Part shown: positions 5,155 through 58,323 of the stretch, piece after piece
Layout of the letters: the number at the start of each line of letters is the position of its first letter
Position numbering within the stretch: position 1 is the first letter of the stretch
IMG/VR virus record: IMGVR_UViG_3300017769_000001
Coordinates: 32,001-96,000 of that record
Strand: one strand, 5' to 3'
Source of the DNA: a virus
Length of the DNA stretch: 64,000 nucleotides
Notes under the pieces: generated by a model
Seen by the model: the letters and a program-made list of their open reading frames with translations, nothing else
The model's database searches: none
Told to the model about the DNA's origin: nothing
Position numbers and translations under genes: made by a program

Positions 5155-5608
5155 ATATCTGAAATTCTGTAAGGACTATGAATTCCCATCCCCTTTCCTT
5201 ACAGAATTTCTTTGCAGCTTCCCACTTCAGCATGTTCGTAGTGAAAACTTCACACTCTTTAAGATAGACGTCTTGACGCTTCCTGCTCGTCTTGACTGGC
5301 GGTAAGGTTTGACTATGCGGCTTAATCTCTGCAAGATAGGTTTTAAACTCCCCATCCTTGGTTCTGACTTCCATGAAGATATCAACCATATATCGACGCT
5401 TCCTTTGAATGCGCGGATCCATGTACGGGACAACAGTCGTTTCGCTGCCCCATCGGATTACAGACGGATGGTTGTCTGCCCAACGAAAGACGGCGTACTC
5501 ATAACTGGAAAGGTAACGGGGGTTCTTGGTTCCTACGTATTTCTCTTTGTTGACGACGTCGTAAGTACCCTGCATACATTTGCTGAAAGCCCCCTTTCGC
5601 TTCGCCAT
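5144..5608 (-). CDS. 4: Head completion nuclease (T4 gp4, TnsA-like fold)
   Basis: N.EKYVG, SSYE, WGSE..VPY, RYMVD, EIKP..QT.PP, KWEAA, LTE; start MAKRKG at 5608. Confidence 0.9.
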   Translation of the reverse strand: MAKRKGAFSKCMQGTYDVVNKEKYVGTKNPRYLSSYEYAVFRWADNHPSVIRWGSETTVVPYMDPRIQRKRRYMVDIFMEVRTKDGEFKTYLAEIKPHSQTLPPVKTSRKRQDVYLKECEVFTTNMLKWEAAKKFCKERGWEFIVLTEFQIFKK

Positions 5609-5772
5609 TAGTCGAAACTCCCGTTCTTCTGCATTTTGGTAGCTGTCGCATACAGGATACTCTCCCAATCGTCGTCATAACGATCCCGGAACTTGTCCTT
5701 GTTATCCTTTATCCATTGTTCTGCTTTGTCGTTCAGCTTGAACTTTTCTTCAAACAATTCTTCGACACGCAT
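5608..5772 (-). CDS. 54-aa probable internal head peptide with the MRVEELFE leader (not in ORF track)
   Basis: Translated by hand: MRVEELFEEKFKLNDKAEQWIKDNKDKFRDRYDDDWESILYATATKMQKNGSFD*; GAGG RBS; stop overlaps gp4 start. Confidence 0.8.
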   Translation of the reverse strand: MRVEELFEEKFKLNDKAEQWIKDNKDKFRDRYDDDWESILYATATKMQKNGSFD

Positions 5773-7063: not shown

Positions 7064-7081
7064 CTATTTAAGCCTAAATAC
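7064..7081. promoter_or_regulatory. Divergent late promoters (TAAATA core)
   Basis: TTAAATAG on minus and CTAAATAC on plus between divergent structural genes; TAAATA also precedes 13971, 50616, 51560, 56021, 56914, 57806, 58323, 59895 and 60446. Confidence 0.7.
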
Positions 7082-7107: not shown

Positions 7108-7815
7108 ATGAGTGTTCGCCGGTTTTCCGTAACAAGTGTTCTCGACGTCAGTTCCCTAGAAGGGTATTACGGACGGCTTGATGTGTACGCATCGTTCACC
7201 GATGATGGTGAGTTCGATATGTACGGAGCCGTCGATGGCAATCTACGTCCTTATGGGGTGTTTGCTTACATGATCAACGACGTGGTTGGTCGTAGGTCTC
7301 GTGAAAGTACACTGTACGCCCGTGTGTTCAGATACCGAGAGAGATCAAAGCAACCACTGAATGTCCAGCAATATACCATGGACGATTACGAACTGGACTA
7401 CCAGAAGATGTTGAGAATGTTTCCGGATCATGAAGAAGTCCTCGATGAAATTTATACTCTGGTTCCGGGACAGCTTTCAATTAAAAATGCTTTCGCACAC
7501 ATCTGGCAGCTGACATTCCGGTTTGCAGCCAAGCTGTCCAAAGGACTGAAATCGATCAAAGAAACATGGGCTGAATTGTTCCAGAAATTGGAATATGATG
7601 CTGTTATCGACAAGCGTGGCACTGGCATTATCGACTCCGACAGAAAACCGTGCCTGATCGTTCTTGGTGATACTGCTGGGCAGCTGATAGAAGATCTGGA
7701 GATTGTGAGCACTCAGGTCTACAAGAAAGAACAGAACAGTCGAATTTACTTCAAGATTGCTCGCTTCAATCGACTGACGGCTGTTGCAAACGCACGAAAT
7801 AGGATCAAGAAATGA
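7108..7815 (+). CDS. Late hypothetical protein, possible ART-like fold
   Basis: PYGVFAY and EYDAVID..GTGII motifs. Confidence 0.5.
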   Translation: MSVRRFSVTSVLDVSSLEGYYGRLDVYASFTDDGEFDMYGAVDGNLRPYGVFAYMINDVVGRRSRESTLYARVFRYRERSKQPLNVQQYTMDDYELDYQKMLRMFPDHEEVLDEIYTLVPGQLSIKNAFAHIWQLTFRFAAKLSKGLKSIKETWAELFQKLEYDAVIDKRGTGIIDSDRKPCLIVLGDTAGQLIEDLEIVSTQVYKKEQNSRIYFKIARFNRLTAVANARNRIKK

Positions 7816-8516
7816 AGACTGCAAAGATCGGAGTCTATGGTGGAAGAACCAGAAAACTCCAGAAGAAACTTTCATATGAAGCAACTTCCATGACGTGGAA
7901 GATCGCAAACGTTTACAAGTATCTTGGTAGTAGGGCAAGCGTCAACCCAAGCCTGAATGATATTCAGGTAACGACGTTCATGGAAGTTCCTGATCGTGCA
8001 TATGACAAATACCCGGTGCCAATCAACATTTATTTCGAGCCTGCTCCAGAACAAGTGACAGACTATTCTCAGTTTGGGATTATAGACCCCATCGGAACTG
8101 ATCAGATCATAAAGGTTCATGTAAATTCCTATGACGACCTTGGTCGTTCTCTCGTAGAGGGAGATGTCATAGAGGTTCCTTTCTTCAAAAATCCCAAGCA
8201 TGACGCCATGTGGGAAGTTGTTGATGTTGATGGCAGTCAGGAATTCGAAAAGTTTTACACTGTTGTTAAGCTTCGTGTTCTTGAAGACAGTCGCAAGACT
8301 CGTGAAATCGATATCACTGGTTCCATTGGGCCTGAACTCGATGACATTGTCGACCAACACAACCAGCACGCGAATGACTATGTTGGTCATGACGGTGTTG
8401 ATGACACTGGAATTGATAACGGAGAAACAAACCCAGACATCAACGAACCTTTCGATGGTGTTGAAGAAACCAGACGATCTTTCTTAGACGAATTTGATGG
8501 AGACCTATTACCGTGA
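7812..8516 (+). CDS. 14: Neck protein (gp14-like)
   Basis: SQFGI, LGR....GDVIE.P, WEV; adjacent to gp13. Confidence 0.75.
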   Translation: MKTAKIGVYGGRTRKLQKKLSYEATSMTWKIANVYKYLGSRASVNPSLNDIQVTTFMEVPDRAYDKYPVPINIYFEPAPEQVTDYSQFGIIDPIGTDQIIKVHVNSYDDLGRSLVEGDVIEVPFFKNPKHDAMWEVVDVDGSQEFEKFYTVVKLRVLEDSRKTREIDITGSIGPELDDIVDQHNQHANDYVGHDGVDDTGIDNGETNPDINEPFDGVEETRRSFLDEFDGDLLP

Positions 8517-9247
8517 GCGTGAATCTGAGTAACGAATTTATTGATGATGTCGTAACCATGCTGAGTGGTACGCTTGTTGACGTGGAGTTGGACACTCCTG
8601 ACATCGAAACCGCGTACCGTATGGCGAAGAAAACATGGAAACAGAAGGGGAATGATAACCTGAATCACTCATTCTACCAACTCGATGTTGTGTCTGGGCA
8701 GAATGAATACCAGCTTCCAGCGGAGATTACTGATGTGGTCAGTGTGATCACGATGAGCAACGATGCATTCACCATGGAAGATCCGTTCGCCATGGCATCC
8801 TTTCAGGAAACGTTCACCTATGGAATGGGCGGGGGTGTGAGTGGGGATTTCTTCTACATCTACGATATGACTCGCCAGATCATCGATAACAACAAAATGT
8901 ACACCGCCGAAGAGCCCAACTTCAGATTCAACAGACGCTCGAATACGATCTACCTGTTCAATCCCCCGTCTGTTGACAGAAAATGGGTCTTAGAGGTATA
9001 CAGACAGTCTACAGACGAAGAATACCAGAATAACCTCTGGATCCTTAACTGGACTATTGCAGAATGTAAGCAGATCCTTGGTCGCGCTTACCGCAAGTTC
9101 GGGTCGCTTCCATCTCCAACCGGTGAATCCCAGATTGACGGCGATCAGCTGGTTCAGGAAGCACAGAGGGAGAAGGAGTTACTTCTTGAAGAAATCGACA
9201 ACTTTGTTGACGGTGATCCTGACGGCATGGGAGTGTACATCGGATGA
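8513..9247 (+). CDS. 13: Neck protein (gp13-like)
   Basis: VDVEL, W...W..A.CK..LG...RKF..LP, IDGD.L..EA..E. Confidence 0.85.
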   Translation: MSVNLSNEFIDDVVTMLSGTLVDVELDTPDIETAYRMAKKTWKQKGNDNLNHSFYQLDVVSGQNEYQLPAEITDVVSVITMSNDAFTMEDPFAMASFQETFTYGMGGGVSGDFFYIYDMTRQIIDNNKMYTAEEPNFRFNRRSNTIYLFNPPSVDRKWVLEVYRQSTDEEYQNNLWILNWTIAECKQILGRAYRKFGSLPSPTGESQIDGDQLVQEAQREKELLLEEIDNFVDGDPDGMGVYIG

Positions 9248-9681
9248 GAATTGAAGAAATATGGACTCCGGGGGAGCAAGAGTACGACGATCTTACACTG
9301 GAGATTAAGGAAGTCTACTCTGGGAGGCTTCTACTAAACTTTGACGATGAACAGGTCAAATATTTGTATCGTGGCGTGTCGAAAGAAGAATACGAAGACA
9401 TCGTCGAAAGCGGAGTCATCAAGCCTTCTAAATTTTATGGAAGGATCCATGCTTCTGCTATCCCTGTGATCGTCGACAGCGACGTATACGTGGTGCTGAA
9501 GATAAAGTACGTACCTTCGGACGGGTGGAAGCCAAAAGCTGCTTCTACAGGCGTATACGCGGTCACAGGAAAGGAAATCCCCAAGGATCGGATCATGGAT
9601 AAGATCCCGGTAGGAATTGCAAGAACTGAAGTCCTTCTCAGGAAAACAAGAATGAGTCAATTCATGGAGTTTCAAACGTGA
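9244..9681 (+). CDS. MRIEE-leader internal head protein, ART-like; paralog of 10972..11409
   Basis: YLYRGVS.EEY..I..SG.IK motif. Confidence 0.65.
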   Translation: MRIEEIWTPGEQEYDDLTLEIKEVYSGRLLLNFDDEQVKYLYRGVSKEEYEDIVESGVIKPSKFYGRIHASAIPVIVDSDVYVVLKIKYVPSDGWKPKAASTGVYAVTGKEIPKDRIMDKIPVGIARTEVLLRKTRMSQFMEFQT

Positions 9682-10493
9682 GAGTTGAAGAGATATTCGA
9701 AGGAATCAGCAATGTTTTATTTCATGGGACTTCTATAGAGGCCGCAGCGTCAATTCTCAAAAGGAATGAGTTCCGCCTGATTCCAGAACTCGCCACCGGG
9801 GAGTTTAAAATGAATGGCAGGCGCAACTCTGAATACGTTTACTTCATGTCTACAGCAAGGACAAAGCAGTCTGATTTTACATCAAAAACCGAAGTGATAT
9901 TTCGTCTCGACGGTCGTAAACTTTCCGCAAATTACACAGGGAGCCCAGTCAGCTTCTTCGGAGACAAATCCGCTATGGATGAAAGCGAAGATCGGATATA
10001 CTCGATGAACCCGACTATAAAAAGAGCATCCCAATACATCACTGCTGTTGAAATGTATAGTATGTTCGGGTCATTTGACGACACAGAGTCCTTCATCATT
10101 CAAACATCGATGAAGATGGGGATTCCTGTTCGGGTTTATGATTCAAAAGAAGATATGGCATCAAATCAACGTCCGTGGTCAGAAGAGAAGGTAATATCTT
10201 CTCTGGAGGGAGAACCGAGGATCCCAGACAGAGGGATGAACAAAGATGCAGAAGAAGTTGGGGATCTTGTTGTTCGATTATTCAAAGGAAGATTTTTTGA
10301 TGATTCAGAAAACAAGTTAAAGAAAGCGTTGCGATACAATGAATTCGACAACCTGATCAACGAATTGTTGCGTAAAGGGTCTGACAACACTCGACACGAA
10401 ATAATGCGGGAAATGAGATTGAATAAGATCCAAAGCATATCTGGGTTGAGAAAGTGGGTTCACGACGAAATGCGCAAGAGAGGTGAAATGTGA
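9678..10493 (+). CDS. MRVEE-leader internal head protein, ART-like; paralog of 12743..13387
   Basis: LFHGTS, FMSTAR, ESEDR (H-S-ExE). Confidence 0.65.
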   Translation: MRVEEIFEGISNVLFHGTSIEAAASILKRNEFRLIPELATGEFKMNGRRNSEYVYFMSTARTKQSDFTSKTEVIFRLDGRKLSANYTGSPVSFFGDKSAMDESEDRIYSMNPTIKRASQYITAVEMYSMFGSFDDTESFIIQTSMKMGIPVRVYDSKEDMASNQRPWSEEKVISSLEGEPRIPDRGMNKDAEEVGDLVVRLFKGRFFDDSENKLKKALRYNEFDNLINELLRKGSDNTRHEIMREMRLNKIQSISGLRKWVHDEMRKRGEM

Positions 10494-10972
10494 GAGTTGA
10501 AGATATTTTCGAAAGCGTTAGAACGTCCGGAGTTTTCTATCACGGCACTAATAAGAAATTCACGACGTTTGACGTTAACGCGGTGCCTGTTAACAGGGCG
10601 ACTAACGTTTCTGGTGCTTACTTTACCCCTAGCATGGTCGAAGCTGGTGAGTACGGTGGACGGATTATCAAAGTAGAAATCAATCCAAGAAAACCTTTCT
10701 TCTCCATGCAGAAGAACCAAATCACCGAATCAATGGTTCGTAAAGCGAAAGAACTTCTTTTGAAGTTTACGACTTACAAGGAAGGTTGGTTGGACAGTGC
10801 CATACTTCCCGCTTTCGTTGAGAGAGGTAATTTCGGCGGACTTTCTGATATCAGTGGTGACATAAAGAGAGATATTCTTTTAGCAGGCGGGTACGATTCG
10901 TATGTAGATGGTCGTCATGTTGTTATTCTTGAGCCAAGTCAAAGATCGGTTAAAATTGTTGGGGAATTCTGA
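10490..10972 (+). CDS. MRVED-leader protein, ART-PolyVal-like
   Basis: FYHGT..KFTTFD, GAYFT, A.EYG, GYDS. Confidence 0.7.
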   Translation: MRVEDIFESVRTSGVFYHGTNKKFTTFDVNAVPVNRATNVSGAYFTPSMVEAGEYGGRIIKVEINPRKPFFSMQKNQITESMVRKAKELLLKFTTYKEGWLDSAILPAFVERGNFGGLSDISGDIKRDILLAGGYDSYVDGRHVVILEPSQRSVKIVGEF

Positions 10973-11409
10973 TGAGAGTGGAAGAGCTTTATGAGGGCAT
11001 CGATGATGGCATGTATGATGATATTACTCTTGAGATTGAAGACCGTTCGGGGCGTTTAATGACGAATCTAGGGGAACCTGTAAAATACCTCTATCGAACC
11101 ATCTCCAATGAAGAGTATGCCGATATCAAAAAATCTGGCATGATAAAGGCCGGTGGTTTTTATGGAAGGATTCATGCTGCCGATATTCCTACGGGTGGAG
11201 ACGGCAATGCGGATCGCGTCATTAAAATCAAATACGATCCTTCTGATGGATGGACACCAAAACGAGCCAGCACTGGCGTTTATGCTACTACTTGGGAAAA
11301 CGTTTCTGCTGATAAAATCGTGGACACTATTCCTTTATCAATTGTTAAGACGAATTGGATGTTGCTAAAAACTTGCTTTAGTCAATACATGGAGTACCAG
11401 ACGCGATGA
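10972..11409 (+). CDS. MRVEE-leader internal head protein, ART-like
   Basis: Shares FYGRIHA, KIKY.PSDGW.PK.ASTGVYA with 9244..9681. Confidence 0.65.
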   Translation: MRVEELYEGIDDGMYDDITLEIEDRSGRLMTNLGEPVKYLYRTISNEEYADIKKSGMIKAGGFYGRIHAADIPTGGDGNADRVIKIKYDPSDGWTPKRASTGVYATTWENVSADKIVDTIPLSIVKTNWMLLKTCFSQYMEYQTR

Positions 11410-12257
11410 AAGTAGAAGAACTGTTCGAAGCAACCGTTATTGGAACGGGGCACAAGAGTCCACTGTCGGACTCGGACACCATTAGAGTCTATCATGGGAC
11501 TGATGACCCTAACTTTTTATTGACCGCCGTTACAAAGGGTCTCAGTGGCGGAATGCGAGCCAACCGCCGTTATTCGTATGAAGCAAACAACAATCCGAAA
11601 GGACTGTTTGTCACCCCTGATCTCAAGACCGCGAAAGACTTCGGTAGTTACATCATAGAATTCCACACCAGAGTTCGAGACTTGGAATCTCCTGTATGGC
11701 CGAATGGGACTTTCACGGGTCAGGGTCAAATGAGTGGAGTTTTTGGTGACGACGCCGACAGGGAACAAGAGAGAATCCGCCAAAGGATGAACTGGAGTGA
11801 ATCGGAATTTGAGTTCGTTAGAAACAGTAGCAGGCCGGAAGTTGCTGCTATGCTACTCGTCTCAGGTGAGCGACAAGCCCTGTTCACCGGAGATTTGAAT
11901 CGCAACTCAATCAGGGCAGTTTGGGTTTCTTCAGATCCTACAAGGATAAATCAACCATACGAACGATTACATCCAAGAGAGCTTCTGAAGCGAGTCAAGG
12001 ATGAAGGACTGATGGATAAGTTCGGAAGTCGTGTAGGGGGCGTTGACAAAGAGTCTGAGATTTTCAGGAACATAAATGGTAAACTCGTTCAGCCTCGCGA
12101 CGACGTGACATTCGAAGATCTTGTTATGGCAGTGAAACGTAAGCGTCCTTTCGTCGACGAAGAAACAATTCGAAGTGTTCTGAGGGACAATGAGGATTAC
12201 ATAAGAAGGTACGTGTGGAGTGACAGGCAGTTCAATCAAGTTATCAGGACAATGTGA
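11406..12257 (+). CDS. MKVEE-leader protein, ART-like
   Basis: VYHGT, GLFVTPD...A..FG, E.QA. Confidence 0.65.
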   Translation: MKVEELFEATVIGTGHKSPLSDSDTIRVYHGTDDPNFLLTAVTKGLSGGMRANRRYSYEANNNPKGLFVTPDLKTAKDFGSYIIEFHTRVRDLESPVWPNGTFTGQGQMSGVFGDDADREQERIRQRMNWSESEFEFVRNSSRPEVAAMLLVSGERQALFTGDLNRNSIRAVWVSSDPTRINQPYERLHPRELLKRVKDEGLMDKFGSRVGGVDKESEIFRNINGKLVQPRDDVTFEDLVMAVKRKRPFVDEETIRSVLRDNEDYIRRYVWSDRQFNQVIRTM

Positions 12258-12709
12258 TGAGAGTTGAAGAAATATTTGAACAACAAAACCAATTGTTCGA
12301 ATCTAAAAAGGAAGTCGTGATATTCGGAGAGAATCATTTTAAATTCGATGAGGTTTCTCGCATCCGGCAGGCAATCGTTGATTTCAATCCGTCCGTCATC
12401 GCTCATGAATTGTATTGGGAAGAAGAAAGCTACTTCAAGCGACATCTCCCCGACGTAAAAGTTCTCCCATTGGAGAAGGAGGTCGGAAAGTTTGACAACA
12501 TGAAGGCTCAATTCAAATCAAGAGAACGTTCTATGATCAATCATCTAAAACGTTACTTCAGGAAATACAATCGGGTCGCTGTTGTGATCGGGGATACCCA
12601 TCTCCGGACAATTGAGACGGAAGAGCTTGGAAGAAAGAGCCCAATCATGGAATGGGCTAAAAGAGTCGGCGCTACGGTTGTAAGAAGCAAATACAGAGAA
12701 ATAAAGTAA
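12257..12709 (+). CDS. MRVEE-leader protein with a Tiki/TraB/ChaN-like metal motif
   Basis: VIFGENH, AHE, RE..M, VVIGDTHL. Confidence 0.6.
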   Translation: MRVEEIFEQQNQLFESKKEVVIFGENHFKFDEVSRIRQAIVDFNPSVIAHELYWEEESYFKRHLPDVKVLPLEKEVGKFDNMKAQFKSRERSMINHLKRYFRKYNRVAVVIGDTHLRTIETEELGRKSPIMEWAKRVGATVVRSKYREIK

Positions 12710-12742
12710 TTATCATCCACAGATGATGTTAAAGAGGAAACA

Positions 12743-13387
12743 ATGAAAGTAACCGACATTTTTTCAGAAGACTCGACGATGACGACAATCGCCAATCTTC
12801 CAAACACCCCGTTCGTTCGTCCTAAGAAGAAAAAGAAAAAGAAGAAAGAGAACGACAAGCTGTACGAAGGTCTTTCTCCCGTTCTCTTTCATGCGACAAG
12901 TTTGAAGTCATTCGTTCAGATAATGAACACCAACGAGATCCGGTTGTCAAAAGACCCCCTGAACAAAGGAAACTTCTACATGTCGTTCTCTAGGAATAGA
13001 ACTAATGACTTCCTAAGATACCTCAATGACATGAGAGATCATGAGCTGGATGAAGAATCGTTCAACCCAAGGGAAGATGCGTTTGTTGTAATGCAGATGG
13101 ACGGGCGGGCACTGTCTTCAAACTTCTCTGGTGGGGCGTTTGATACGTTCGCGTACGATGGGGATGATTATGGAAGACCAGACGCATCTGATTTCATGGA
13201 AGACCGCTTGGTGAGTAACTCCCCGTCGATCAAAAACGCTTCTCGCTACATCAAGGCGGTATCGCTGGTTAATGGGTCTGAAGTTCCAGATTCGACTCTC
13301 GTCAAGTTGGTGGGTCTTTTCGGTGCAAATTTTGCTATGTACGATACACTACAAGACTACATGAAAAACAGGGTGAGGGAGCGTTAA
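12743..13387 (+). CDS. MKVTD-leader protein, poly-Lys tract then ART-like domain
   Basis: K8 run, LYE-GLSPVLFHATS, YMSFSR, MEDR. Confidence 0.6.
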   Translation: MKVTDIFSEDSTMTTIANLPNTPFVRPKKKKKKKKENDKLYEGLSPVLFHATSLKSFVQIMNTNEIRLSKDPLNKGNFYMSFSRNRTNDFLRYLNDMRDHELDEESFNPREDAFVVMQMDGRALSSNFSGGAFDTFAYDGDDYGRPDASDFMEDRLVSNSPSIKNASRYIKAVSLVNGSEVPDSTLVKLVGLFGANFAMYDTLQDYMKNRVRER

Positions 13388-13970: not shown

Positions 13971-15155
13971 ATGCTGAGTTCTGATTACATCCGATCAATC
14001 GTTCGAGAATCTATCAAAGAATCTTATCAAACCATTCTTTTTGAAAACTTTGGTCTTCTGGAAGACACTCTGATGTCGGCTATGGATGTCGGGTTTGCTG
14101 GAGAAATGGTTCGTGACTTCGAAGAAGTGGTCGACGCCGCAACGAAAGCCGTTGGATTCAATTCGATGGCGATGGATGCAGAAGAATACGTACAGGAAGT
14201 CGTCGAAATTTACAGAACGCTGGTTAAACGTGGAGTAAAGTTCGTTGACTCGGGCGGCAGGGAAGTAAGACAGGGGAATGACTCCAGTTTCTGGATCGGA
14301 CAGTTGAACCGAAATATGGATATGCGGTCTGTTGATAGAGTCGTATCCATATTCTGTGCAATGCTTGTGTCTACCATGAGAATGATCAAAGAGCGAAAGG
14401 ATTTCAAAGACAACAAAGAATCGTACAAGATCATCCATAAGGGATCAAACTTCACTGTGTTCAAACCAGAACACAAAGCCGCAGCGTGTAGACTTGGAGC
14501 AAACACCAAATGGTGTATCTCGGCCAGAGGATCCGACAACTACTTCGACGATTACAATGCACGTGGGGAAGTGTACATCATCCATACCAGAAATGATAAA
14601 TACGCGATCATTATGGCTGATGGGCGTGTGAAAGAGATTCAACATTCTGGGAATACGTACGACGAGCAAAACTACGGGCAGTATGAAGAATTCGTCAGTA
14701 TGATGCGCGGTGATGGAGTTGACCTAGAACTTCTCGATTCTCTGATAGGGAGCAATCTTTCCAAGATCAGGAAAAAGAAGGAATTCCGTATCGAGAGTAT
14801 GGAGTTGATCGGTGATCTTGAAAAGAACATGGCGGTTACTGATACACTCGGATTTGACGATATCGAAAACTTTTATTTGAGCCTTTCTATGGATGGTGAG
14901 ACGCATGAGGTCGACGGTATTATTGTTGCGAAGAAAGCATCAGAAACTTTCATGACAACAATACACAACCCCCACATCGCACCAATAAACGGAATCGCAC
15001 TGGAGTTACTGCCTAAGTTCAATGATGGCAGGTTCCCGGATGATAATGTGATGAACAAATTTTCCGCAGAATTGAGAAAAGTTGTCGAAAAGCGCGTTGG
15101 TGACTTTGAAACAGTAAGACTTCAGCAATTCGTGAAAATTGCTGAAGAGGATTGA
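13971..15155 (+). CDS. Late hypothetical protein, probable internal head protein with a G..TKWCIS domain
   Basis: TAAATA promoter, ILFE/LLE possible protease sites, AAC.LG..TKWCIS motif. Confidence 0.55.
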   Translation: MLSSDYIRSIVRESIKESYQTILFENFGLLEDTLMSAMDVGFAGEMVRDFEEVVDAATKAVGFNSMAMDAEEYVQEVVEIYRTLVKRGVKFVDSGGREVRQGNDSSFWIGQLNRNMDMRSVDRVVSIFCAMLVSTMRMIKERKDFKDNKESYKIIHKGSNFTVFKPEHKAAACRLGANTKWCISARGSDNYFDDYNARGEVYIIHTRNDKYAIIMADGRVKEIQHSGNTYDEQNYGQYEEFVSMMRGDGVDLELLDSLIGSNLSKIRKKKEFRIESMELIGDLEKNMAVTDTLGFDDIENFYLSLSMDGETHEVDGIIVAKKASETFMTTIHNPHIAPINGIALELLPKFNDGRFPDDNVMNKFSAELRKVVEKRVGDFETVRLQQFVKIAEED

Positions 15156-17537: not shown

Positions 17538-17987
17538 TTAGAGTCCACTCATTTCCAGAACGCTTTCCACCATGGTGGCTTCCAATTTTTCTTTCAGCTC
17601 TTCGTCTTTTTTATTCGAAATGTGCTTTATCGATTTCACAACTTTATAACGAATGTAGTTGGCTGTTGACGGTGCTACCCATAAGTCAGCAGGAACTCCA
17701 TCGATATCTATACTCTGGAGATCGCCGTCATCATCAAATCCAGCGCGAACTTTCCCAAAAATATAAACCCCGTCAAGGTTACTCTCGTGAGACGCTATGG
17801 TTGCATGTTTGGTGGATGTTATTTTGAGATTTTTCTGTCTGAAATACCGCAGTATGTACGTATCCAGATCGGTCGTATACCCACTCTTTCTGAGGTATTG
17901 GTTTTTATTCCAAACCCGCAGATAAAGTAGACCGACAATGAGATAGTCCATAATGGTTTTTCTCTTAAAATTATACCGGTTACTCAT
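17538..17987 (-). CDS. Hypothetical protein (C-terminal Leu-helix group)
   Basis: AGGAG RBS. Confidence 0.65.
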   Translation of the reverse strand: MSNRYNFKRKTIMDYLIVGLLYLRVWNKNQYLRKSGYTTDLDTYILRYFRQKNLKITSTKHATIASHESNLDGVYIFGKVRAGFDDDGDLQSIDIDGVPADLWVAPSTANYIRYKVVKSIKHISNKKDEELKEKLEATMVESVLEMSGL

Positions 17988-17998
17988 ATCACACTCCC

Positions 17999-18199
17999 TT
18001 AAACCCAGTCCCAGTTTTGAAGTTTGTGGCGGTTCTCTGTCAAAGCGTCCGCCACTTCGATGAGTTCTTGAATTGACGATACGGCTGTCTGTCTTTCCGT
18101 AGTACCGTCTAAGACGATAATGTCTCCTTCGGCAGTTACGTTAACATCCATGTTAGCACGCTTGCACAACTCGATGAGTTCTTCAATCTTGTCCGCCAT
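17999..18199 (-). CDS. Hypothetical protein
   Basis: Operon packing. Confidence 0.6.
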   Translation of the reverse strand: MADKIEELIELCKRANMDVNVTAEGDIIVLDGTTERQTAVSSIQELIEVADALTENRHKLQNWDWV

Positions 18200-18494
18200 C
18201 GTTTATAACCTTCATCTTCGATACGTTGGTTACGGTTTCTTCGGTGATGCATTCTTTTGTCAACTCTACGAAGTCATCAACAATTTGATCTGTGACTTCC
18301 TGCTTTACCTGAAGAAACCGCTTGTTTACTGGATGTCCGGTTTTGTGATCCCCGACAACAAGCATCGGCATCAGCTTGTTGTGTCCCAGATGAACCATCC
18401 ACTCACGACCATTGTAATCGAACGTCTTGATGACGTCAACCTCGTAGGAATGATTCTCCGGATCCAGACCGATGATTTTAGCTTTTGCTTTCAT
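18183..18494 (-). CDS. Hypothetical protein
   Basis: Operon packing. Confidence 0.6.
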   Translation of the reverse strand: MKAKAKIIGLDPENHSYEVDVIKTFDYNGREWMVHLGHNKLMPMLVVGDHKTGHPVNKRFLQVKQEVTDQIVDDFVELTKECITEETVTNVSKMKVINDGGQD

Positions 18495-54791: not shown

Positions 54792-56021
54792 TTACGGAGT
54801 AACTGCGTTGCTGAAGCCAAGCTCCAGATTTGCGATTGTAGCACGAGCCAGATGGTCGGCAGAATCGGCAAGATCGGTAGCCGGATCTTCGAAAGCAGTC
54901 AGGGCGTAGCGAGTACGCAGACCCATACCCTTGTCCAGAGTCTCTGGGTTCACAACGATACCAGAGCTTGACAGTGGGATGTAGCTGCTGTAGATCAGCG
55001 GTGCGTCAACTTCAGAGCCTTTACGACCCATGATCACCTGATCACCTTCCATGTGCACGTCAACGTAAACGCTGATATTGCCATCGAAAGTACCTACGTA
55101 CAGGGTTTCAGAAGCGCGGAACGCGTTTGCTTCAGCCGGTACGAAAGTGCTGTTAGAAGCGTTTTTCAGACCAGTCAGAACGCGAGGGGAAACAACCATC
55201 CAAGTTGCACCTGAACGCTTAGTCGCCAGAGCGATGTCAGAAGACATGTCGCTGAACGCGATAGTCATTGCAGACAGTTTCTCACCAGCGTAACGACCGT
55301 CGACGTTAGCGAAGTCCAGAGTACGGACAGAACCAGCCAGACGAGACAGTTCACCGATCAGTTCGCGATCCAGTTCACGACGGATTTCGTCGGACAGAGT
55401 TGCGATCAGTTCGTTTTCCATGCTCAGACCGTCAAGGTTTTGCAGGTCATCGTCAGATTCCAGAGACCAGCGAGCAGACAGCTTGCGGCTCTTGGTTTCG
55501 ACTTGCTTCATGGTCACGTCGAGGCTCATCGGCTTACCACGGTTGCCTTCCAGATATTGAGTCTGAGCAAACGGATCCATGGCGTCGGTTGCGTTATAAT
55601 CGGCTTCGCCGTTCTGAAGCAGTGAGTACTTCTCGTACAGGTTCTGCGCAGATGCTTCGTCGCCAGCTGTTACACTTCCGTTAGTCAGTGCGTCTTCGCT
55701 GTAACGCTTACGCAGGGTACGAATTACACCGCGAGGGCCGGGGATGGTTTGAACACCAACCAGATCCATAGCCAGCAGGTTCGGCATAGTACGACGAATC
55801 AGCGGCATGAAGATTTGGTCATAGCGAGTGATGTCGCCGGTTACTGTTGATCCAGTAGCAGTAGATTCGAAAATCTTTTCCTGCTCCTGCTTACCACTTC
55901 CGCTGATGTTAACAGCGTGGGTGTTGTCCATGAACTTTTCGATCAGCTCACGACGAGATCCTTTCAGACCGTCGAGAAGGCTCTCTTTCAGTTCACTGTA
56001 TTGCATGTTTTCGGTAGTCAT
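54792..56021 (-). CDS. 23: Major capsid protein (gp23-like)
   Basis: LIRR.MP.L.A.DLVGVQ...GP.G, SRKL.A.WS.E...DL, EI..E.DRE, TRYAL. Confidence 0.95.
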   Translation of the reverse strand: MTTENMQYSELKESLLDGLKGSRRELIEKFMDNTHAVNISGSGKQEQEKIFESTATGSTVTGDITRYDQIFMPLIRRTMPNLLAMDLVGVQTIPGPRGVIRTLRKRYSEDALTNGSVTAGDEASAQNLYEKYSLLQNGEADYNATDAMDPFAQTQYLEGNRGKPMSLDVTMKQVETKSRKLSARWSLESDDDLQNLDGLSMENELIATLSDEIRRELDRELIGELSRLAGSVRTLDFANVDGRYAGEKLSAMTIAFSDMSSDIALATKRSGATWMVVSPRVLTGLKNASNSTFVPAEANAFRASETLYVGTFDGNISVYVDVHMEGDQVIMGRKGSEVDAPLIYSSYIPLSSSGIVVNPETLDKGMGLRTRYALTAFEDPATDLADSADHLARATIANLELGFSNAVTP

Positions 56022-56071
56022 TTGACAAACTCCTGATTTCTTTCCTGTTATTTATGCTTGAAAAATTTTTA

Positions 56072-56914
56072 TCAATCTTCGACGCCAGCTAGACGACGAG
56101 CATGTTTCAGCCAAGCTTTGGTATTTGGCTTTGCATCGCCATCCTGATCCTGATTTTCAATAACGACGGTTCCTTTCGGAGTTTTGTCGTCGACATTTTC
56201 ATTCAGGTTGTCCTTATCTTTGCCTTCGCCGTCACCTTCGTCGTCGCCGGATCCTTCGCCTTCACTCAGAACGACACTTTTAGCCAGTTCTTCGTATCGT
56301 GATTCCAGCTTATCCAGAGCAACGCCTTCCAGAAGAGTTGCCATGATTGCACGCTTACGGCCAGTCAGACCTTCCAGCAGTTCATTGGTTTTCTTCTCGA
56401 CGCGAAGTGTTTGCAGCTCATTGGTTGCTTCTTCCAGCTTGGCAGTCAGTTCTTCTGACTTGTCGTCTTCAGCTTTAACAAGACTTGCATATGAAGTCTG
56501 GAAAGCTTCAAACATTCGCTGACCAACCAGATTCTTGCGAGATTCTTCCAGAGACTCTTTCAGCTCTCCGAGTTCTTCCGCAATGATGGCATCGACAGAT
56601 TCTTTGATCTCTGCGTCTTTCTTCTGAGCGTACTGCTCTTTGAATTCTTCAAGCTTGGATGCGTAGCGAACATCAAGAGTGCGTGCCTCTACGATTTCGT
56701 CTTGCAGAGCTTTGAATTCTTCGGTAACTGCTTCTTCGATCATTTCGACCGCAGATTGAGCCAGTTCTTTCTTGCTGTTTTCGAATTTCTCAGCAAGTTC
56801 GACTTCACGAGCAGCAACCTTTTCGTTTACTTGTGATTCGAAAGCTTCTTGCAGTTTGGTTTTAACCTCATCTGTAAGAACAGAGCTTTCAAGGATCTCT
56901 TTCAGTTCGTTCAT
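56072..56914 (-). CDS. 22: Prohead scaffolding protein (gp22-like)
   Basis: Acidic coiled coil between protease and capsid genes, many LxE sites. Confidence 0.85.
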   Translation of the reverse strand: MNELKEILESSVLTDEVKTKLQEAFESQVNEKVAAREVELAEKFENSKKELAQSAVEMIEEAVTEEFKALQDEIVEARTLDVRYASKLEEFKEQYAQKKDAEIKESVDAIIAEELGELKESLEESRKNLVGQRMFEAFQTSYASLVKAEDDKSEELTAKLEEATNELQTLRVEKKTNELLEGLTGRKRAIMATLLEGVALDKLESRYEELAKSVVLSEGEGSGDDEGDGEGKDKDNLNENVDDKTPKGTVVIENQDQDGDAKPNTKAWLKHARRLAGVED

Positions 56915-56970
56915 TTCATTTCTCCTGAAATCTTTAACGATAGTTTGAATTTATTTAGGCTCTGCATCAC

Positions 56971-57588
56971 TTAGCGCAGATTCATTGCCTTGATGAATTT
57001 GCACATTTCTTCAAGAAAGTACTTCTGGGCAGCTGCGTCGTAAATTACCGCTTCCGCCAAGTCATTCACGATCTCGCCGCGCTTATAAGCTTCAAGGGAT
57101 TCCATGATGCTTTCGGGATACGCGTTCTGAGCAGAAGGCATCGCAACGGCATCAATAGTCACCAGATGAAAGTTGGAAACGCCGCCAGACTCATTCAGTT
57201 GACCCTTACCACGTGAAGAAACCCCAACACGAACACCAGAGTCGACAAGACCTTTCAGGATTGACCCGGCTTGTGTCTTCTCAAGAATTTCGGCAGTTCC
57301 GATTACTTGGTTGCCCTGCATCTTCAGCTCGGTGATTTTGTGTGAAACGTTCTTCAGGGAAACATCGAGACGGCCACTCGGGTGGTCAAGTTCGCCAAGC
57401 ATGTGATTGCCTTGGGCAAACATTGCGTTATGGCGGTCGACTTCTTTCTGCATTTCTTCCAGAAGGTAAGTTCTGCCGTTTCGGTTTTTCTTCTCGGCTT
57501 CCATGAAGACACCTTTCAGGTAGAGTTTCTTGCCATCTTGGGCAGATTCTGTGATAATGCCTTCTAAGTTTTGTTCGGTGAGAATCAT
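56971..57588 (-). CDS. 21: Prohead protease (gp21-like)
   Basis: NRNGR.Y, LGELDHP, VSH.I, GVSSRG.G, D.V..PSA..A. Confidence 0.95.
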   Translation of the reverse strand: MILTEQNLEGIITESAQDGKKLYLKGVFMEAEKKNRNGRTYLLEEMQKEVDRHNAMFAQGNHMLGELDHPSGRLDVSLKNVSHKITELKMQGNQVIGTAEILEKTQAGSILKGLVDSGVRVGVSSRGKGQLNESGGVSNFHLVTIDAVAMPSAQNAYPESIMESLEAYKRGEIVNDLAEAVIYDAAAQKYFLEEMCKFIKAMNLR

Positions 57589-57870: not shown

Positions 57871-58323
57871 TTACATCTCAACGAGGTTTCCTTGCGGATC
57901 TACCGTGTAATCAGTCTCATCGCCGTTGTTCTTCTTGACGATCATGTATTCGTATTGACGTGACTTTGCGAGCTTCTTCAGATCAGACATCCGGTTGATC
58001 GTGAATTCATCGACGCCTCTTTTAGGCCCACCAGTTCTCGTAGCGGTAACCTTGATGGCTTCTTCGAGAGCATCGCGATTTCCTTCTTCGGACTCACTGA
58101 CTTCTTCTTCATTGACATTGTCTTCGTCGTCCTTGTCTTCGTCGTCCTTGTCTTCGTCGTCCTTGTCTTCGTCGTCCTTGTCTTCGTCGTCCTCGTCAGT
58201 ACCATACTTTTCTTCGATGGCAGCTTTAGCAGCTTCCTGAATCTTCTGACGGATCGCTTCCCGAAGGGCCGTAACTCCGTCTTCCTTGCTCATACCTTCA
58301 TCAAAAATTTTTTCAATGCTCAT
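57871..58323 (-). CDS. Acidic prohead core protein (gp67-like position)
   Basis: After portal; DDEDK repeats; xxE sites. Confidence 0.65.
   Translation of the reverse strand: MSIEKIFDEGMSKEDGVTALREAIRQKIQEAAKAAIEEKYGTDEDDEDKDDEDKDDEDKDDEDKDDEDNVNEEEVSESEEGNRDALEEAIKVTATRTGGPKRGVDEFTINRMSDLKKLAKSRQYEYMIVKKNNGDETDYTVDPQGNLVEM
58118..58192 (-). repeat. 5 x 15-bp perfect coding tandem repeat (DDEDK units)
   Basis: TTGTCTTCGTCGTCC x5 on +. Confidence 0.95.

Follow-up and report, generated by a model that had tools for sequence, protein, structure and literature searches.

A tandem array of seven genes, E1 to E7, whose products share a short N-terminal leader directly follows neck gene 13 of a divergent T4-like myovirus, a distant relative of T4, at positions 9244-13387 of the 64,000-nucleotide stretch analysed here (the window; bases 32001-96000 of the 148,739-bp virus record IMGVR_UViG_3300017769_000001, which has direct terminal repeats). 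The closest cultured relatives of this phage are Alishewanella phages Slicko01 and Slickus01 (capsid protein 56% identity). Six of the seven bodies behind the leader belong to the ADP-ribosyltransferase (ART) superfamily, in three or four lineages as seen by fold or hidden Markov model, and the same genome encodes a gp21-type prohead protease and a capsid protein with a matching predicted cut site. The products of E1-E7, of an eighth copy (E8) and of at least one further gene of this genome are probably head-internal cargo. Their leader would resemble the capsid targeting sequence (CTS) of T4 internal proteins and be cut by the gp21-type protease, and the cargo would be injected with the DNA, the ARTs acting on the host.

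An earlier note, written from the letters of this DNA, had listed the seven genes with their N-termini and an eighth copy, and every coordinate and leader was recovered exactly. All seven lie on the plus strand (a slash marks the predicted cut): E1 (9244-9681; 145 amino acids (aa); MRIEEIWT), E2 (9678-10493; 271 aa; MRVEEIFE/G), E3 (10490-10972; 160 aa; MRVEDIFE/S), E4 (10972-11409; 145 aa; MRVEELYE/G), E5 (11406-12257; 283 aa; MKVEELFE/A), E6 (12257-12709, from an ATG at 12257 with an alternative GTG at 12254; 150 aa; MRVEEIFE/Q) and E7 (12743-13387; 214 aa; MKVTDIFSE). In E7 the leader is followed by a Lys-rich linker, an internal DKLYE/G and then an E2-type ART domain. E8 (5608-5772, minus strand; 54 aa; MRVEELFE/E) is located upstream of a gp4-like head completion gene. 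Outside the window, an open reading frame (ORF) at genome positions 17731-18357 (L009:1232-1858) encodes a 208-aa protein that carries MRVEELLLE/A and is without family match; its homologs are the last gene of a similar array in Slickus01 and proteins of the Xanthomonas jumbo phages Xoo-sp13 and XacN1. A weak candidate, also outside the window (genome 5800-6285), starts MRVDEVLQIE, with [IL]-x-E not in register and a C-terminal hydrophobic segment. The consensus leader is thus M-[RK]-[VI]-E-[ED]-[IL]-[FY]-E, eight residues long, and [IL]-x-E occupies residues 6-8 or 7-9 in E2-E6, E8 and the genome-17731 protein. Among ORFs of at least 50 aa, ten matched the leader pattern genome-wide (two of them outside the window), compared with a mean of 0.03 and a maximum of 1 in 30 shuffled genomes.

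The bodies behind the leader are paralogous or unrelated, as the note had held: E1 and E4 share 54% identity, E2 and E7 share 31% (E 1e-22), and the remaining pairs are unrelated by BLAST. Such paralog pairs within a tandem array would be at home in a reading in which the genes encode cytoplasmic late enzymes that are not packaged, their common N-terminus being either an expression element or what serial duplication or gene conversion in the array has left behind; similar 5′ ends could, moreover, be favoured by translational coupling. This reading is improbable, as the leader is also found on dispersed genes (E8 and the genome-17731 gene) and on non-homologous folds, and as the [LI]-x-E rule is obeyed by over 90% of the family members in other phages, hundreds of diverged sequences. 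Furthermore, the leader codons vary synonymously (GAA/GAG, ATA/ATT/CTG/CTT/TTG, TTC/TTT/TAT and AGA/AAA/CGT) and the DNA upstream of the genes is unrelated. Because the codons vary in this way and the upstream DNA is not conserved, selection has acted on the leader peptide. The synonymous codon variation rules out that the common N-terminus stems from a repeat or a coupling element at the nucleotide level.

By sequence comparison among relatives, the leader is a property of the phage, not of the cargo. In Slickus01 a nine-gene array starts MKI[DE]xLYES throughout, and its cargo consists of five E2-like proteins, one E3-like, one E1/E4-like, one homolog of the genome-17731 protein and one other. 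Five such genes stand behind MRISQI[STL]E in the metagenomic contig L007, and seven adjacent genes of Pseudomonas jumbo phage Lu11 (L014; JQ768459, 156980-165726) start MKIQLA[VLT]A and encode three E2-like ARTs, one ART-PolyVal-like protein and three others of up to >870 aa. Among six E4 orthologs of 61-94% identity the leaders vary, with [IL]-x-E at positions 6-8 in all. Across the non-homologous cargo of one genome, leader identity over residues 2-8 was 0.48-0.88; between genomes, for homologous cargo, it was 0.00-0.34 among the studied phage, L007, Slickus01 and Lu11. In pairs with the near-identical relative L011 it was 0.68 with the studied phage (four pairs) and 0.50 with Slickus01 (two pairs). 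This pattern is expected if phage-specific head-assembly machinery reads the leader.

The content of the array turns over quickly, since L011, a very close relative (E5 98% identical), keeps only E3, E4, E5 and E7 after gp13. Array size accordingly ranges from four genes in L011 to seven in the studied phage and nine in Slickus01, so that the comparison of array content among relatives, which had been put forward as a check, revealed variable cargo. In L007, a DUF6267 protein of 677 aa that bears an intein-like insertion (L007:6669-8702) lies directly upstream of the array, in the place that gp13 takes here, so that a position beside the neck genes is no fixed feature of the array. A search for related loci with gp13 returned two distant loci, which were left out of the comparison. 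Beside the array of Slickus01, a second, unrelated set with a common N-terminus was seen: L003:3125-4129 and L003:5418-5939 have an identical 26-residue N-terminus (MVGTTKKLFSKVTVTNKDRTAPFFFG) in proteins that otherwise differ.

The predicted cut site follows the same rule in two large families. An exhaustive profile search was needed to delineate the E2/E7 family, as a word-indexed homolog search with E2 gave only 2 matches, and at least 1736 clusters at 50% identity were found. Among 131 members of the E2 family in which the domain starts near the N-terminus, [ILVMF]-x-E directly precedes the domain in 122; L or I occupies P3 in 119, Gly stands at P1′ in 106, a K or R is found at residue 2 in 105, and the modal leader length is 8-9 residues. 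The E5 family, with over 218 clusters at 90% identity in metagenomes and no match among GenBank phages by tblastn, follows the rule in 107 of 118 members. For example, the metagenomic E5-family protein P0218 starts MKTFNQFIAE/ARV, which is nearly the CTS of T4 IPII and IPIII; its C-terminal region has a weak Pfam match to BTHB (basic tilted helix bundle). Within E7, the internal KLYEGLSPVLFH lines up with the N-terminus of E2 in the alignment. E7 and its orthologs in L011 and P0007 consist of the leader, a linker of about 25 residues with a run of 8-11 lysines, and a second leader-like site, [IL]-[YV]-E/G (window 12743-12870).

Fusions of array domains are rare among relatives in two-domain form (L007, P0196 and P0224), and E2-type domains are found together with ART-PolyVal domains in metagenomic proteins of 1200-2300 aa. 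The L007 fusion (L007:11685-12755; 356 aa) joins an E3-type (ART-PolyVal) to an E7-type ART and has KIVE/GLSPVLYH exactly at the junction, as would be expected of a polyprotein cut by the head protease. Internal [IL]-x-E/G junctions of this kind resemble pure processing sites, and strict conservation across lineages is limited to [IL]-x-E and the basic residue 2. On these grounds the leader might be a site of cleavage for the head protease, or else an inhibitory propeptide, instead of a targeting signal, with the proteins reaching the prohead by another route or staying inactive until cut; a pro-form would be favoured since ARTs can be toxic to the producer cell. We consider this unlikely, because the sameness of leaders within a genome exceeds the cut motif (MRVEE..., MRISQ..., MKIQLAVA), suggesting that the peptide is recognised in full, and because the equivalent 10-mer of T4 alone suffices to package foreign proteins (PMC3012670, PMC5694885).

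A candidate enzyme for this processing and a putative second substrate are both encoded in the head module, which comprises the portal, an acidic core protein, protease, scaffold and capsid genes. The gp21-type prohead protease (Peptidase_S77; 56971-57588, minus strand), the predicted processing enzyme, matched PF03420 above the cut-off (E 2.6e-25), and the gp23 major capsid protein (54792-56021, minus strand) matched PF07068 (E 6e-65). At EKIFE52/STATGS the capsid protein aligns column for column with the T4 gp23 cut FLTE65/AEIGG, and a cut at IFE52/S53 is predicted from this alignment; the KIFE-S that the note had placed at the end of the propeptide thus aligns E52/S53 with E65/A66 of T4. 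The capsid protein of Slickus01 has VISE/STASGS at the aligned place. Between protease and capsid genes lies a gp22-like scaffold gene (56072-56914, minus strand), assigned by that position, whose N-terminus, MNELKEILE/S, resembles the leader, and the protease itself also has a leader-like N-terminal site (...NLE/G). An acidic 150-aa prohead-core-like protein (57871-58323, minus strand), located between portal and protease as are T4 gp67/gp68, starts MSIEKIFDE-G, close to the leader. In Slickus01 the N-terminus of the scaffold (…LKQLFESVVLNEE) resembles the cargo leader of that phage (…LYESLLEEG).

In T4, all internal head proteins enter the scaffolding core by way of the CTS, which gp21 then removes, and the internal proteins of T-even phages are diverse except for the CTS (PMC3012670, PMC5694885); Alt is cut at ITE-6 (PMC5694885). 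N-termini in the T4 record are of this type: ipII and ipIII have MKTYQEFIAE/A, ipI a longer leader ending ITE, gp24 ...LLRE/S and gp22 ...LIAE/A. By analogy, the leader M-[RK]-[VI]-E-[ED]-[IL]-[FY]-E would recruit the cargo to the prohead scaffolding core as the T4 CTS does, the gp21-type protease would trim it after [IL]-x-E, and the mature enzymes would remain in the DNA-filled head until they go into the host with the genome.

The cargo would be made late, from a neck-gene operon. The gp13-like neck or head-tail adaptor gene (8513-9247, plus strand; phrog_211 head-tail adaptor, E 3.6e-20), whose ortholog in L011 has Pfam Phage_T4_gp13, overlaps the start of E1 with its stop. Start/stop overlaps, which the note had seen for the first six array genes, link the gp13-like gene and E1 to E6 and measure 1 or 4 nt; 33 nt separate E6 from E7. 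A late-promoter-like CTAAATA (7074-7080, plus strand) precedes the operon that begins at 7108 and runs through gp13 to E1-E7. [CT]TAAATA is found upstream of gp22, gp23, gp15 and the operon at 7108 (sites at 7074-7080, 56040-56060 and 56940-56950), each as a motif match only. Two sequence features would fit late expression with the head genes, the overlap with gp13 and the CTAAATA common to the regions upstream of gp22 and gp23. The canonical T4 late promoter, TATAAATA, occurs nowhere in the 64-kb window, and scans for sigma-70 promoters and terminators gave background level only. A search of GenBank phages with the array DNA returned no match.

The earlier note had seen ART-like motifs in six of the seven bodies and had named unrelated predicted folds as a finding that would speak against it; structure searches with E2 and E4 were instead dominated by ARTs, E6 being the exception among the seven. 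The AlphaFold (AF2) model of E2 (predicted local distance difference test (pLDDT) 91.3) consists of an ART-fold domain of the split beta-sandwich type (about residues 13-160) and a C-terminal helical domain. The former matched yeast Tpt1 with a VIA Z of 10.7 (root mean square deviation (rmsd) 2.6 over 112 residues), followed by other Tpt1/KptA structures (Z 8-9) and DarT (Z 8.2), and all top-50 rows were ARTs. Invariant residues of the E2 family fall on strands 1, 2 and 5, where the catalytic residues of ARTs are expected (H/R, Y/S and E/D): H16 on strand 13-18, S58 and R61 at strand 55-60, and E104, D105 and R106 at strand 104-109, as putative catalytic residues placed by strand position. The link of E2 to ARTs is visible at the fold level only: none of 81 E2-family members had a meaningful Pfam match (0/81), and a profile search of PDB sequences with the family gave only spurious helical-repeat matches. 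All BFVD neighbours of E2 are uncharacterised phage proteins. E1, E2, E4 and E7 had no match in Pfam or PHROGs.

E3 carries an ART-PolyVal domain (PF18760, E 3.2e-9); with 38.1 bits, where the cut-off is 31.2, it is the only one above threshold; at E<=1, PF18760 gave no match for E5, E1, E2, E4 or E7. E4, a small ART-fold protein of KptA/DUF952 type (AF2 pLDDT 71), was compared with 48,161 chains in an unbiased search. Its best matches were KptA (Z 8.7, which is near the background ceiling; rmsd 2.5, 86 residues) and CC0527/DUF952 (Z 7.7), the next were Tpt1, Scabin and DarT, and nearly all top-50 rows were ARTs; its Atlas structure neighbours were Tox-ART-HYD1, Tpt1 and DUF952. E7 and E1 are assigned putative ART folds by paralogy with E2 and E4. 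The N-terminal half of E5 is a remote relative of ART-PolyVal: with leaders removed, hhalign joined the E5 family to the E3/ART-PolyVal family (92.6%, E 4.4e-7) in the region YHG...G-x-[FY]-x-TP, and the E5 homolog P0223 scored 26.8 bits with PF18760, below the cut-off of 31.2. When shallow alignments of the E2 and E1 families were compared with the E3 family by hhalign, only the leader was matched, and these comparisons were set aside. No Alt/VIP2-type Pfam match at E<=1 was found among the eight proteins.

E6 is a putative TraB/PrgY/GumN (Tiki)-like protein, of a superfamily recognised by its fold together with GxxH ... E ... H motifs. Its Atlas model has a template modelling (TM) score of 0.66 to the TraB family, it matched phrog_14325 (E 5e-14), GENH and GDTH are visible in its sequence, and Pfam gave only a weak match to DUF5694 (E 0.086). 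A homolog, gp103 of Salmonella phage Arash, was detected in a virion mass spectrometry preparation, in a very inclusive list of 116 proteins.

Since Glu8 is invariant in an 81-sequence alignment of the E2 family, and a leader-like motif also precedes internal E2-type domains, the conserved N-terminus could be conceived as belonging to the ART domains themselves, structurally or catalytically, and not as a separable module. This is very improbable: residues 1-12 of E2 form a low-confidence coil outside the fold, which begins at strand 13-18; the same leader stands on the TraB-like E6, on the 54-aa E8 and on the unrelated genome-17731 family; and the Lu11 homologs of E2 have MKIQLAVA in its place. 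The claim of a modular leader and payload is upheld by the same features, the leader being found on non-homologous cargo, changing with phage lineage and lying outside the fold in the E2 model.

Several observations weigh against packaged, protease-trimmed ART cargo. E1 has no Glu at position 8 and no [IL]-x-E there, and the Glu of the E7 leader is shifted by one residue, to position 9. The leader of Lu11 is without Glu, so that a link to the protease is assumed in that phage. In multidomain proteins of 1200-2300 aa, E2-type domains in internal positions are often preceded by [LI]-x-E-G as well, which fits polyprotein processing but could in part be a structural feature of the domain. Among the folds, the putative catalytic residues of the E2 family are placed by strand position, the E4 model is of moderate quality only with its best match close to background, and the link of E5 to ARTs spans the first half of the fold only. 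Finally, the studied phage is uncultured, and both the presence of the cargo in virions and its N-terminal processing are predictions from sequence. Weighed together with these points, the interpretation given in the note, that of an injected cocktail of leader-bearing enzymes, is supported, having passed every computational test able to refute it.

The proposed mechanism would be the one that serves T4's internal proteins and Alt, here in a distant lineage and with a different leader and locus, a new array layout and new cargo families. As for T4 IPI, IPII and IPIII, a short N-terminal peptide ending [LI]-x-E is found on unrelated cargo; a gp21-type protease and a gp22 scaffold are encoded, as is a gp23 whose cut, here a predicted one, falls at this motif; and the cargo changes among related phages as the leader is kept. 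Unlike the T4 CTS, the leader here is MRVEEIFE, of eight residues, and in place of the T4 loci ipI and ipII/III there is a single, translationally coupled array behind neck gene 13. Moreover, the T4 internal proteins are small and basic, whereas the array cargo consists of predicted enzymes of 145-283 aa. T4 Alt is likewise an ART-superfamily protein with an N-terminal propeptide ending I-x-E, and delivery with the DNA is predicted here as well. However, Alt belongs to the R-S-E Alt/VIP2 clade, to which the array proteins have no sequence match; the array ARTs are H-type (ART-PolyVal/HYD2) or, by fold, Tpt1/DarT/DUF952-like. T4 has one packaged ART, the studied phage six candidates per genome.

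Myoviruses are reported to package ARTs often (PMC9503650), and head-packaged ARTs in myoviruses were predicted earlier from genomics (PMC9503650, PMC5512222). Polyvalent proteins (PF18760; Iyer et al. 2017) resemble the array in the domain of E3, which is above threshold, and in predicted virion delivery; they hold many effector domains in one large polypeptide, whereas the array genes encode single- or two-domain proteins of 54-283 aa, each with its own leader. In the giant phages phiKZ and SPN3US, much as predicted here, several propeptide-bearing, head-internal ejection proteins are cut by a gp21-related protease at a short Glu-ending motif, and paralogs have identical N-termini. Their propeptides, however, are mostly longer than 100 residues with the cut motif [SAG]-x-E, in contrast to 8-9 residues and [IL]-x-E here.

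Other genes recognised in the window are those for a dNMP kinase, gp45, gp32, a gp3-like tail protein, gp15, rIIA and rIIB, besides the gp4-like head completion protein and gp13-like adaptor described above. Right after the array, a 394-aa ORF (window 13971-15155) is without leader and has I-K-E/S at residues 15-17, and its L011 ortholog has I-Q-E/N at that position. The product may be an additional cargo protein, its propeptide being longer, like that of T4 IPI.

Proteins injected with phage DNA act before phage gene expression and are therefore good candidates for first-line counter-defence or host takeover; to our knowledge, few are known outside T4, P1, N4 and phiKZ-like phages. In the studied phage, the six ART-fold proteins would use NAD+ on protein or nucleic-acid targets of the host, for takeover or counter-defence, and the TraB/Tiki-like E6 would enter with them. 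An ART fold is now given to families outside the coverage of Pfam and PHROGs, and the cultured relative Slickus01 carries the nine-gene version. A sequence rule follows: where a genome encodes a gp21-type protease, candidate cargo is recognised by an N-terminal leader of 8-9 residues that is specific to the phage and ends [LI]-x-E. By this rule nine or ten candidate cargo proteins are picked out in a single uncultured phage, and more than 90% of the members of two large, uncharacterised families (E2 and E5) conform to it. A further extension, possible though doubtful, is that the leader is a lineage-specific address code (MRVEEIFE, MRISQITE, MKIDxLYES, MKTFNQFIAE, MKIQLAVA) co-evolving with scaffold and protease, and that the E2 family is a new clade of injected ARTs acting on nucleic acids or NAD-derived immune signals and not on proteins. 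If true, such an address code would make it possible to list, from sequence, all the proteins that uncultured myoviruses inject.

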